In this document: one piece after another, positions 35,043-39,277 of the stretch
Layout: each line of letters opens with the position of its first letter
Position numbering within the stretch: the stretch's first letter is position 1
Origin: Escherichia phage vB_EcoP_Kapi1
Sequence record: MT813197
Length of the DNA: 39,436 bases
Direction: 5' to 3' (one strand)
Program-made: the position numbers and the translations under genes
The notes under the pieces: model-generated
Databases searched by the model: none
What the model was told of the DNA's origin: nothing
What the model saw: the letters and a program-made list of their open reading frames with translations, nothing else

Positions 35043-35105
35043 ATGACAGACATTACCTACTCAACAGATGGTCAGCAACCATGTTTGCTGCCTTATAAGC
35101 TATAG
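35043..35105 (+). pseudogene. Displaced ancestral 5' end of tailspike gene (MTDIT...), truncated after 20 codons
   Basis: ATGACAGACATTACC encodes MTDIT, which I recall as the canonical P22-family tailspike start; frame runs into the endonuclease gene and stops. Confidence 0.5.
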
Positions 35106-35553
35106 CCGCTTCATCAATGGTGTTGAATCTCCCAAGGGTTATGTTTTTACCTGAGACATTTATCTGAGCTTGCCATTGATTTCTGGCTTGACAGAAAGTT
35201 ACCCCCTTGATTCCAGCATTGCTATTTCGAGGTCCGACATTTAATGCATTTACGACTCTGCTGACATCCCTAAGGTTTGAGATTGCGTTATTTCTTCTGT
35301 TTCTATCAATGTGGTCAATCTCTTGTTTGGGCCATTCGCCATATACATACAGCCAGGCAAGTCTATGTGCAAAATATCTTACGCCATCAATATTAATTGC
35401 GTTATATCCATAAGAAATTGTGCCAGCAACTTTCCCAACAGCACCTCTGGCGCTTAATTTCTTTTTCCAAGTGAAAATTCCTGTTTCTTTATTGTAATCG
35501 AGAACCTCCATAAGGCGCTCCCGAGTTACTACCTCGTGACGTCTCTTACTCAT
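35053..35553 (-). CDS. HNH homing endonuclease with AP2 DNA-binding domain
   Basis: 166 aa from MSKRRHEV (GGAG RBS); HNH_3-like core [30 protein letters not shown]2-like C-terminus [15 protein letters not shown]. Confidence 0.8.
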
Positions 35554-35566
35554 TATTTTCTCCGGA

Positions 35567-37951
35567 ATGTTTATTATGCCAGAACAATTATACAACGTAG
35601 TTGTTTCACAACCAAGTCAGTTATTTACTTTAGCTCGCTCGTTTAAAGCAAATGCCAATGGCAAAATTTATATCGGTAAAATTGACACTGACCCGGTAAA
35701 TCCAGAAAACCAGATTCAGGTTTATGTAGAGAACGAAGACGGCTCTCACGTTCCTGTTTCGCAACCAATCATCATTAACGCTGCCGGATATCCGGTATAT
35801 AACGGACAGATTGCCAAATTCGTTACCGTGCAAGGCCATTCTATGGCTGTTTATGATGCGTATGGTGCGCAGCAGTTTTATTTTCCCAATGTGCTAAAAT
35901 ATGATCCAGATCAGCTGGACGTAAGACTTTCATCTCCATATGGAACATCGTATATTCATCATAATGGTGAGAACGCTGTAGATGTTCCACTTAATAAGTA
36001 TCTGGCATGGCGTAATGGAGATATCTCCGCCTTCGGAGGTAAATATAACGACTCAGCTTCTGGAGATCTGAATAAATCTGCATTTGCAGAAATGGAATCA
36101 ACCTTCGGAGGAGTGCGCTTGAACCTGATGGGTAAGTCTGTTTATATTCCAGATGAAATGAATCTACAGGTATCAAATATAGAAATATGGGGTGGTGGGA
36201 ATATTATGGCAGGCGCAGGCTACGCCTTCTTCCTAAAAGAAGGTGGAAGTGTAACTGCAAAGAACTTCCATATTGAAGGAGTGTCTTCAGATTATCCTAG
36301 GCTAGTTGGAAGTATTCAAGGTGTTGCTTACAAAATCAAAGATATCTCTTACAGTCACTTCACTACCAAAGGACGCGTTATTCTTTTTGCTGGGCTTGGT
36401 AACACTATCTATCCAGCGGTTAATCCAGAAGTTACAGGATATGGATGTAATTCTGTAAAGATTTCACACTTTCACTCTGAGTCACCTGTAGATTATATTG
36501 TTTCTTTACAGGATTTCCCGTTCAGTACGCTTGAGGTAGCAAACTTCACTGTACACAACATGGCGGGGACATTCATAAATGCAGGGATAACCAACGAGAA
36601 CCCTTACGAACGCCAATTGCAAAGAGCGATGGAGTTGGTATCAATCCACGACTACACCGTTGAAAATGAAGACAGTTTTTGGGCTGATGGTAACTACGCT
36701 TACACCACAATAGGTGTTTGCGAGTGCTGGAATCTCAATCACTATAACGGAACTCAAAGAGGGGTAAAGGTCAGGAACTCAGGAAATTCCTATTACGATC
36801 TGTACAATGGCTCTCATCTTGTCGCTGAGCGAGATATAACAGTAGTAGACGGTTATGTGTGGAATGATTGGCATCTGTCCCCTCATAAGATAAAAAACGC
36901 TTATCAGTACACTAGCCAAAATAAGCGCTGGTACTATACTCGAGACTATATAGCCAGAATTAAGGCTCTGTTTCCTGGTGTCGATGAAACAAAATCAACT
37001 GGTTCATTCTTCTATCCAGAAACTCAGGACTGGCACAACGAAACTACCGGGCCTTTGGAATATGGCAACCGTTTCATTCACATCGACAATTGCGACATTG
37101 AACTTATCAGACTTGGTTTGGTGCATGGTAATGCCGTTAATACAAATATAAGGATAACTAACAATCACTTTAGTTCACTATCTACACTGCGTACAAACTT
37201 CATGCAGGTAGCCAATTACCCATACAACATATATCAGCAGATCACATTCAAAGACAATAGACTTGATTTGCCAAAAGCTACCGTAAGCGGAATACTTAAA
37301 ATGCTTAACGGTGGTGAAGCAGGAGGAGGAGGATTTACTGGTGTCGTGGATATTTCTGGCAATGTTGGTAGATTTGATAATCTTATCGTATTTGACGATT
37401 TCACCACCGTGTCAAGTCTGTATGCAAACATGATGCTCTCACTGAGAAACAATGATTTTGTCTCTACGACCAACTGCTATCTGACAGGTGATGGCGTGCA
37501 AACAAGTCAGTTCGACGCCTCTGTATGCGACAAAAATTTCCTCAGTGGGGCGTCAGTCAAGATCGGTGCTCTGTGGAATACCCAGGGAAGAATCGAAGTA
37601 GGTGCGGTTATTAACTCATTTTCACCAGTGATATTGTTTGATGTTGGCATCCCGACAACAATGAATGTTGCTACAGGTGATAGGTATATTAACATTGATA
37701 ATGGGTCATCCGGGGTGCGAGTTATCAAGTTCACCATTTCGAAGGATGCTAATTCTACAAGCATTACCTTTACAGATGGAGCAGGAACGCAAGTAACTAA
37801 AAAAACAGGCACAGATAATGGAACCTTTTCAGTTAATGTAGGGGCATCAGCTGGATTTGCTGTAAATTGCATTGTTTCCTCCACAGGAGTTTCAATACAG
37901 ACAGCTTCTTCACTTAGACAGCGCTTTATCATCTCTGGATATACTGTATGA
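35567..37951 (+). CDS. Tailspike protein (P22-like N-terminal head-binding domain, distinct receptor-binding domain)
   Basis: 794 aa; residues 9-110 ([40 protein letters not shown]...) parallel P22 gp9 N-domain; first 8 residues replaced by insertion-derived sequence. Confidence 0.85.
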
Positions 37952-37956
37952 GAATC

Positions 37957-37993
37957 TCCCGCCATATTGGGCGGGGATTAATTAATTTTTTTT
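37957..37993 (+). terminator. Rho-independent terminator after tailspike
   Basis: CCCGCC-ATATTG-GGCGGG followed by T-run ATTTTTTTTT. Confidence 0.6.
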
Positions 37994-38122
37994 GAAAGCA
38001 TATTCTACAACTACTTTTGATGAAGCTTTTGTAAGATGCTTATTATCTGTATATGCTGGTATTCCATCCCTGATAATATCGCACATCACATCATATCATT
38101 ATGGGGTCTTCTGCATTTATCA

Positions 38123-39277
38123 TTACTCTTTCCCATCAAGCCAGTCCGCCCACCATTGCATCATTTCTCTGCGTTTGTCGAGATACTGAGCATGGTTGTA
38201 AATTCCACGCACGGATCCGCCGTTGGCATGTGCCAGTTGCACTTCAATAGCATCAGCGGGCCATTCGTGCTCGTTCATAATCGTGCTGAATTCATGCCTG
38301 AATCCGTGACCGCTTTCCAGACCCTCATAGCCGATTTGTTTGATCACAAGCAATACCGCGTTCTCGCAGATTGGCTTCTTCTTATCGTTGCGCCCGGCAA
38401 AAACAAACTCTGATACTGGTTTGGTGATTGAGCTTAGCGTAGTGAGAAGTTCAACCACCTGGTCCGACATCGGGACCACATGAGTTTTGCGGCCCTTCAT
38501 CACACTGGCGTCGATGGTGATAATCCTGTTTTCAAAATCGACGTTCTTCCATAGCATGGAACGAAGCTCTTTCGTTCTTAGGGCAGTGTAGCGTAAAACT
38601 TTGGTCGCAATGAGCGATACGATACTTCCTGAAAATGTTGCCAGTGCTTTGTTGAATGCAGGGATCTGGTCTGCAGGAAGAAACGGGAAGTTCTTCTTGC
38701 GGTATCCCTTCATGGCGTCTGCAAGGTCAGGTGCCGGGTTATATTTAGCCCTTCCGGTGACAATAGCGTAACGAAAAACCTCGCCGCATCTTCTGCGGGC
38801 TTTGTTGGCTCGCTCCATTGCACCGCGATCTTCAAATCTGCGGATTACTTCCAGCAGTTGCATCGGCTCAATATCCTGAATCTCAAGGCCGCCGATGATG
38901 GGTAAAATGTCGTCATCAAACATTTTGGCAAGTTCAGTTGCATAGCCTACTGACCAGACTTGCTTCTTGTGCTCGTACCATTCCTTGTAAATCGCACTAA
39001 AGGAATTGTTGTTAGACGAAGCCTTTTTCGCCTTTACCGGATCGATGCCAACCGAGATGTCTTTCCTCGCAGTCCATGCTTTATCCCTTGCCTCTTGCAA
39101 AGTCATAAGCGGATATTTTCCGACAGTCAGGATTTTCTCCTTACCGTCAATCTTGTAGCGAAGCTGCCATACCTTTTTCCCTGATACAGGGACATAAAGG
39201 TACAGGCCATTACCATCGAGTAGGCGGTATGGTTTTTCTTTCGGCTTTGCTGCTTCAATCTGCTTAACGGTGAGCAT
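38123..39277 (-). CDS. int: Tyrosine integrase, P4-type (KplE1 IntS-like)
   Basis: Start placed at MLTVKQIEAAKPKEKPYRLLDGNGLYLYV; C-terminal catalytic region HGFRHEF...RGIYNHAQY; the ORF-track start at 39313 is a GTG. Confidence 0.85.
   Translation of the reverse strand: MLTVKQIEAAKPKEKPYRLLDGNGLYLYVPVSGKKVWQLRYKIDGKEKILTVGKYPLMTLQEARDKAWTARKDISVGIDPVKAKKASSNNNSFSAIYKEWYEHKKQVWSVGYATELAKMFDDDILPIIGGLEIQDIEPMQLLEVIRRFEDRGAMERANKARRRCGEVFRYAIVTGRAKYNPAPDLADAMKGYRKKNFPFLPADQIPAFNKALATFSGSIVSLIATKVLRYTALRTKELRSMLWKNVDFENRIITIDASVMKGRKTHVVPMSDQVVELLTTLSSITKPVSEFVFAGRNDKKKPICENAVLLVIKQIGYEGLESGHGFRHEFSTIMNEHEWPADAIEVQLAHANGGSVRGIYNHAQYLDKRREMMQWWADWLDGKE

Follow-up and report, generated by a model that had tools for sequence, protein, structure and literature searches.

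A P22-type anchor and a predicted beta-helix receptor-binding module, most likely directed at O54-type O-antigen, in the tailspike of prophage Kapi1

The gene analysed here lies near the end of a 39,436-nucleotide (nt) stretch of DNA from Escherichia phage vB_EcoP_Kapi1 (sequence record MT813197; hereafter the window), and its product is the tailspike, the receptor-binding protein, of Kapi1, a temperate Lederbergvirus integrated at argW of the mouse commensal Escherichia coli MP1 (PMC12922286, PMC8787464). The protein joins a virion anchor of the P22 type to a receptor module that differs from the P22 tailspike in sequence and resembles it in predicted fold. Taken together, the data make it probable that this beta-helix module binds, and most likely cleaves, an O54-type O-antigen.

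That only the head-binding domain of the Kapi1 tailspike is conserved, and that the rest is unlike viral proteins, was reported by Pick, Ju, Willing and Raivio (mBio 2022; PMC8787464), so the observation of an anchor with an orphan domain is already in print. Their tailspike is the same protein, from the MP1 prophage at argW, and its gene is 100% identical. Beyond that paper, the present analysis contributes a fold, a family, an O-serogroup and candidate residues, all of them predicted or inferred; the O54 link among them is new, if modest. The initial annotation of this DNA had proposed that the module might carry a novel specificity unless it proved highly identical over its full length to an already characterised tailspike. 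Full-length identity was found to the published Kapi1 tailspike, which is biochemically uncharacterised and therefore touches the proposal only weakly, and no later paper characterising this protein was found in the literature searched.

Nothing in these results is conceptually surprising, since textbooks already describe modular tailspikes and orphan receptor domains. Kapi1 and MP1 are, however, an established model for lysogeny in the mouse gut. A beta-helix enzyme directed at O54, if the candidate is borne out, would explain the narrow host range of Kapi1 and would open a route both to tailspike enzymology and to the unexplained O-antigen changes in lysogens. The module represents a further uncharacterised specificity cassette and a possible O54-specific detection or depolymerase reagent.

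Anchor, junction and sequence family of the receptor module

A single long open reading frame (ORF) on the + strand ends at position 37951 of the window. Its most upstream ATG is at 35567, and the ATG at 35576, on which RefSeq and the alignment with Sf6 gp14 and P22 gp9 agree, is favoured as the start codon of a 791-residue protein (Table 1). The gene is 100% identical in DNA to positions 1440525-1442900 of the MP1 chromosome (NZ_CP139039.1), where RefSeq names the product "phage head-binding domain-containing protein". Indeed, the window and the MP1 chromosome are identical throughout the last 9861 nt of the window, a stretch that stops 2 nt short of tRNA-Arg.

Table 1. Features of the Kapi1 tailspike gene (positions in the window; RBD, receptor-binding domain numbering of the AlphaFold2 model)
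Feature	Position	Strand	Remarks
Tailspike gene, prophage Kapi1	35576..37951	+	791 codons + stop; identical to WP_050597935.1
P22-type head-binding (virion anchor) domain, residues 1-114	35576..35917	+	PF09008; ends at KYDPDQ recombination junction
Linker and helical neck/cap, residues 115-179, start of receptor module	35918..36112	+	AlphaFold2 helices RBD 24-32, 35-38, 48-62
Right-handed parallel beta-helix (predicted), residues 180-670	36113..37585	+	
Most conserved core, candidate catalytic/sugar-binding groove, residues 324-456	36545..36943	+	Family conservation
C-terminal beta-sandwich domain, residues 671-791	37586..37948	+	AlphaFold2 strands RBD 558-675

The sole Pfam match in the tailspike is PF09008 (Head_binding), which covers residues 1-113 with an E value of 2.2e-64 and exceeds the curated cutoff. 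Searches of PDB chain sequences gave matches confined to residues 4-122, namely Sf6 gp14 (7sg7, E 4e-61), P22 gp9 (8tvr, E 2e-47) and the P22 head-binding fragment (1lkt, ~1e-47). The anchor is 74% identical to that of P22 gp9 and 89% identical to that of Sf6 gp14, and residues 1-114, as shown by this homology, dock the spike onto the P22-type tail. Similarity in DNA to the tailspike genes of HK620, Sf6, CUS-3 and >1100 E. coli prophages ends at gene position 339-362 overall and at ~339-344 for the three phages; the wider range corresponds to window ~35915-35937 and lies directly after the KYDPDQ motif. The junction is therefore placed at residue ~114-118 (window ~35917-35930). These results agree with the initial annotation in limiting the similarity to the P22 tailspike to the first ~110 residues and in treating the remaining ~680 as distinct; the start it gave for the distinct domain, 35990, is corrected here, the junction lying ~70 nt upstream.

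Beyond the junction, ~675 residues have no recognisable sequence relative in the domain and structure collections. Residues 115-791 matched nothing in Pfam, PHROGs or NCBIfam, and a search of PDB sequences with the family profile was likewise without a match. Similarity to residues ~125-666 of P22 gp9 was not found by phmmer or PDB profile searches, the second stretch aligned with P22 scoring 2.2 bits. Comparison of the family profile with the beta-helix of HK620 gp9 by hhalign returned a probability of 0.9%, that is, no profile similarity; because this comparison gave no alignment, known catalytic residues cannot be transferred to the Kapi1 protein. GH28 (PF00295), Pectate_lyase, Beta_helix (PF13229) and PF12708 gave no match in 11 family members, even at E <= 10. 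A C-terminal intramolecular chaperone of the endosialidase type (Peptidase_S74) was not matched in Pfam either, and the C-terminus is modelled as a beta-sandwich.

Two candidate matches were rejected. One, to phrog_8280 ("colanic acid degradation tailspike"), reached residue 388 but was gone when the receptor domain was scanned alone; since that domain by itself matches no PHROG, the match was carried by the head-binding domain. The other, a weak profile match between the C-terminal domain and Bacteroidales Hcp/TssD (E 0.3), was taken as chance. Among GTDB species representatives, zero relatives of the receptor module were found. A collection of 50,697 phage records yielded no full-length match, and tblastn with the receptor domain gave one weak match only, to a tail protein of Bacillus phage LY2 (26% identity). 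This silence tells little because that copy of the collection apparently lacks the published Kapi1 genome, and what it fails to return may still be present in GenBank.

Relatives of the module were found in larger collections. The module occurs in 29 clusters (90% identity) among 5.8 billion proteins, all of them full-length and 43-100% identical to it, and a second word-index search with the family profile yielded no further members. An exhaustive HMMER search of 1.84 billion representatives added 2 more distant full-length relatives, P0030 and P0031, which are almost without an N-terminal anchor, as well as ~90 remote proteins that match residues ~190-455 only. Five loci with the module are present in IMG/VR. 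The remote relatives carry Head_binding, Tail_spike_N, BppU_N, Big_2, SLH and ChW as accessory domains, which identifies them as phage receptor-binding proteins or Gram-positive surface proteins. Their beta-helix is outside Pfam coverage too, with 1-2 relatives matching PF12708 in the cap region only.

Predicted fold and candidate groove

Residues 116-791 were modelled with AlphaFold2 from the 29-sequence family alignment, with a predicted local distance difference test score (pLDDT) of 88.7 and a predicted template modelling score (pTM) of 0.86; this run replaced a single-sequence model that was unusable (pLDDT 37). The model consists of a short helical neck, many short strands in a long series and, at the C-terminus, an all-beta domain. 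It contains the central right-handed parallel beta-helix and the C-terminal beta-structure domain that define a P22-like tailspike. The neck region, residues 115-179, is highly conserved in the family (...NLMGKSVY), and similarity to members with other anchors begins at ~L118.

A Foldseek comparison of the model with the PDB gave the HK620 tailspike as the best match (E 1.7e-5), with P22 also listed. The structural matches to HK620, P22 and Acinetobacter tailspikes have the same architecture at 7-13% identity, and predicted viral structures gave generic beta-helix matches only. The initial annotation had suggested structure prediction and comparison with tailspike beta-helix enzymes as a check; this returned a confident model with a tailspike as its closest structural neighbour. 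Its description of the receptor-binding domain as unrelated to P22 gp9 holds for the sequence and is too strong for the predicted fold, a beta-helix followed by a beta-sandwich. Based on the model, the module is predicted to have an ordinary beta-helix tailspike architecture, its difference from P22 gp9 being confined to the sequence; like other tailspikes, it presumably assembles into trimers.

Compared with P22 gp9, Sf6 gp14 and HK620 gp9, the Kapi1 protein shares an anchor (74-89% identical), a gene position adjoining ant and int, an O-antigen receptor and, by prediction, the succession of neck, right-handed beta-helix and C-terminal beta-sandwich. In contrast, no sequence or profile similarity to these proteins is detectable past residue ~118, and their catalytic residues are unalignable; the targeted O-antigen also differs, being of the E. 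coli O54 type, most likely, for Kapi1. The part that follows the anchor is also longer, ~675 residues in Kapi1 compared to roughly 550-600 in the P22, Sf6 and HK620 tailspikes. Further structural neighbours include the Acinetobacter proteins AM24 (5w5p) and APK09 gp48 (8oq0), polysaccharide lyase (PL) family 6, glycoside hydrolase (GH) families GH87, GH110 and GH28, and AlgE4, at 8-13% identity and root-mean-square deviations of 3-7 A. In the predicted structure, what is shared with these depolymerases and beta-helix enzymes is a general fold, from which neither substrate nor mechanism can be read.

Family conservation is concentrated in one part of the predicted helix (Table 1), where N328, N340, N364-D365-D366, Y376, E383, K398, Y407-D408-Y410 and K438-I-K440 are invariant or almost so in the 29 clusters. 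Polar residues that are invariant in the 29 clusters include N328, N340, N364, D366, D371, Y376, H389, K398 and D408, and further E418, D425, K438, K440, E482, D485, R499 and E509. In the ~90 remote relatives, P284, G290, N328, N340, N364-D365-D366, Y376, E383, G396, K398, Y407-D408-x-Y410 and K438-x-K440 (K438-I-K440 in the window) are kept in 50-99% of the proteins, with N328, N340, Y376, E383, K398, Y407, D408, Y410, K438 and K440 kept in at least 90%.

In the AlphaFold2 secondary structure, the conserved residues directly follow equivalent predicted strands and are spaced ~31-37 residues apart, or about one rung of the helix. Arranged by rung, they form the series N328, D365/366, K398, D425 and the series N340, Y376, Y407/D408, K438/K440. 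Given this spacing after equivalent strands, we infer that the residues would stand in two ladders along a single groove that spans four rungs. The best candidates for an active groove are D365/D366, E383, D408, Y376/Y407/Y410 and K398/K438/K440. The order of motifs (N, DD, H and K on successive rungs) resembles GH28 and was considered together with a rhamnogalacturonan-like alpha-GalA-(1->2)-alpha-Rha that O54 probably contains; there is no match to the GH28 hidden Markov model, and H389 is not kept in the remote relatives, so that the resemblance was retained as a lead only.

O-antigen receptor and proposed mode of action

The O-antigen is the receptor of Kapi1, as established by genetics: spontaneous Kapi1-resistant mutants carry a 1-bp deletion (frameshift) in wzy, and a waaL deletion mutant is almost resistant (PMC8787464). 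Incubation of virions with purified lipopolysaccharide (LPS) of the non-lysogen changed its ladder, which the authors worded as "suggesting degradation", and the virion-treated LPS was "altered", unlike that of both the wild type and the lysogen (PMC8787464). The gene behind the altered LPS of the lysogen was not identified in that study (PMC8787464).

The O-antigen locus of MP1 begins with galF, rmlB, rmlD, rmlA, wzy ("O54 family"), two glycosyltransferase genes, a HAD-type hydrolase gene and a GT2 glycosyltransferase gene. It continues with wzx ("O54 family"), genes for a CapA-family protein and an ATP-grasp amidoligase, rmlC, gnd, ugd, an NAD-dependent epimerase gene and wzzB. Both wzx and wzy of the host are thus of the O54 type by RefSeq annotation. 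Together with the published genetics of the MP1 O-antigen (PMC8787464), this annotation supports the earlier proposal that the receptor differs from that of P22, and the tailspike most likely recognises the O54-type O-antigen of its host, as judged from the rfb cluster. O54 is mentioned neither in the Kapi1 paper nor in the MP1 genome note, and no paper linking MP1 with O54 was found in the literature searched.

The O54 unit probably contains alpha-GalA-(1->2)-alpha-Rha (the rhamnogalacturonan backbone of galacturonic acid, GalA, and rhamnose, Rha) with a 4-substituted alpha-GalA. By its rfb cluster, the O54-type O-antigen of MP1 would contain Rha, ribofuranose (Ribf) and probably GalA; D-Ribf is a constituent of E. 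coli O54 (review, PMC7685785). In the same cluster, the HAD-type hydrolase, CapA-family and ATP-grasp amidoligase genes (locus L003, 14089-14706 and 17589-19465) have no obvious role in a repeat of plain sugars and may point to a substituent that is an amino acid or some other non-sugar group.

The distribution of the tailspike is consistent with an O54-type target. The full-length gene is present in 3 of 5426 complete E. coli genomes, all from rodents or rodent-derived (MP1, mouse strain LI60C3 and rock-rat strain A39). An O54 wzy occurs in 14 of the 5426, among them all three tailspike-carrying genomes, where wzy is 99.3-100% identical. The chance of all three being wzy-positive is ~1e-8, a figure that applies only if the genomes are independent; the association is suggestive and not statistical proof. 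A natural non-lysogen and potential host may be rat strain R12, whose O54 wzy is 100% identical and whose genome lacks the tailspike gene.

Based on these observations, a simple model can be proposed. The N-terminal domain docks the spike, presumably a trimer, on the P22-type tail, and the beta-helix would bind several repeats of polymerised O54-type O-antigen, a single O-unit being insufficient because wzy mutants are resistant. The spike would then, most likely, cleave the O-antigen chain as an endo-depolymerase, with the conserved cluster of carboxylates, tyrosines and lysines as the putative catalytic groove, and cleavage would let the virion descend to the outer membrane. An endo-depolymerase is suggested by the change in the LPS ladder and by analogy with P22, Sf6 and HK620. 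The presence of genes of O-antigen biology near the tailspikes of relatives (Acyl_transf_3+SGNH in a sister prophage, Polysacc_synt in a siphovirus) is also in line with this model.

Several points weigh against the model. The change in the LPS ladder was measured with whole virions, not with the isolated protein (PMC8787464). The O54 label rests on the RefSeq annotation, NCBIfam having no model of the O54 wzx and wzy. The three tailspike-carrying genomes are probably of one rodent lineage and so do not amount to three independent observations. Finally, the catalytic residues are guesses because no glycoside hydrolase or lyase family could be linked to the module by sequence. The novel glycosidase specificity suggested in the initial annotation is plausible, with published data that extend only as far as the effect of virions on the LPS ladder (PMC8787464).

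For the cleavage itself, a glycoside hydrolase mechanism is somewhat better than an even prospect and is favoured over a lyase, although the evidence does not decide between the two. A polysaccharide lyase would act by beta-elimination at a 4-linked uronic acid (GalA) of the O-unit, with a conserved lysine or tyrosine as the base. The MP1 cluster contains ugd and an adjacent NAD-dependent epimerase gene, an arrangement typical of UDP-GalA supply; K398, K438, K440 and three tyrosines rank with the best-conserved positions, in remote relatives as well; and uronate-active enzymes are among the structural neighbours of the model. However, the conserved acids D365/D366, E383 and D408 are also typical of hydrolases, remote relatives are present in Gram-positive phages, the substrates of which need not contain uronates, and Pfam scans found no signature of a PL family. 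A lyase is thus the less likely of the two mechanisms, and we regard it as unlikely.

It is improbable that the module is a non-catalytic adhesin that merely binds O-antigen, with another component of the lysate responsible for the LPS change. Those tailspikes of P22-like phages that are known to have been solved (P22, Sf6, HK620 and CUS-3 type) are enzymes. In addition, the strongly conserved polar cluster is kept across ~90 very distant relatives, a pattern seen more typically in active sites than in binding surfaces that determine specificity. An adhesin would be in keeping with the fact that no catalytic family membership could be demonstrated in Pfam, PHROG, NCBIfam or PDB searches and with the use of phage particles, not pure protein, in the published assay, but those particles did change the LPS ladder (PMC8787464).

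Modification of the O-antigen in place of cleavage, for instance by an esterase or deacetylase as in some tailspikes, would suit the distinct state of virion-treated LPS described above and the O-acetylation genes that accompany the sister prophage, but it is very improbable: the known deacetylating tailspikes use SGNH-type domains, Pfam found no SGNH or other esterase domain here, and the whole module is modelled as beta-helix and beta-sandwich.

More generally, it is possible, though we hold it only tentatively, that the receptor-binding module is the founder of a family of beta-helix polysaccharide-degrading enzymes not yet classified, either a new GH or a new PL family. Proteins ranging from temperate phages of Enterobacteriaceae through to phages and prophages of Gram-positive bacteria would then have the catalytic core N...N...NDD...Y...E...K...YDxY...KxK in common, with the Kapi1 enzyme specific for a Ribf-containing and probably GalA-containing O54-type O-antigen.

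Anchor shuffling, mosaicism and genomic neighbourhood

The receptor module is joined to at least three virion anchors. Besides the P22 head-binding domain, these are an N-terminus of the epsilon15/phiV10 type (P0006, P0008, P0014 and P0016; 80-87% identical to TL-2011b and phiV10) and a TSP1/gp66-type N-terminus (PF18668), which is present in 16 clusters and found in ~47-kb siphoviruses of Cronobacter, Enterobacter and Hafnia. In one siphovirus relative, a Polysacc_synt gene stands beside the tailspike gene. The receptor modules of the epsilon15/phiV10- and TSP1/gp66-anchored tailspikes are homologous to that of the window along their entire length (43-82% identity), whereas the window copy has the P22-type anchor. 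At the level of sequence comparison, the combination of different anchors with homologous receptor modules shows the usual shuffling of anchor and receptor module.

Identity to the window also varies within the module. In windowed comparisons, the E. coli relative P0005 reaches 100% identity at residues 41-200, falls to 45-52% at residues 521-680 and returns to 98% at residues 721-760; the last stretch is also 98% identical in P0008, whose anchor is of the epsilon15 type. For P0010 the values are 80-90% as far as residue ~360 and 35-75% from there on. These alignments suggest that neck and C-terminal domain are swapped independently of the central helix. Two predicted prophages of 38 kb and 50 kb in one IMG/VR source genome (UViG_2728369358_000003 and UViG_2728369358_000001; loci L010 and L012) each carry a family member, with modules 79% and 64% identical to that of the window. 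As both occur in a single source genome, divergence of the module need not mean a different host glycan.

In the RefSeq annotation of MP1, genes for P22-like ejection proteins (gp7, gp20 and gp16) are followed by arc/mnt, the antirepressor gene (ant), an HNH gene, the tailspike gene, intS, tRNA-Arg and yfdC. The antirepressor encoded upstream of the tailspike has Bro-N and P22_AR_C domains. The tailspike gene therefore has the position expected in a P22-like phage (Lederbergvirus): it closes the late/immI region, comes after the genes of the ejection proteins and arc/mnt/ant, and adjoins int.

Between the antirepressor and tailspike genes, a gene for a 152-residue endonuclease with HNH_3 and AP2 domains (homing-endonuclease type) lies antisense at 35053-35511 on the - strand, within ~65 nt of the tailspike start. 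An endonuclease adjoining the recombination-prone tailspike junction could promote module exchange. On the other side, the gap between the tailspike and integrase genes is 171 nt in Kapi1 (37952-38122). The small ORFs after the tailspike gene (37992-38189 and 38036-38413, + strand) have zero Pfam matches. In the sister P22-like prophage that encodes P0005 and occupies the same argW/yfdC site, the corresponding gap holds a gene for a 611-residue Acyl_transf_3+SGNH protein of the O-acetyltransferase type (locus L004, 8405-10240). The 3' end of the tailspike gene also holds an antisense ORF of 152 codons (37507-37965, - strand), which has probably arisen by chance.
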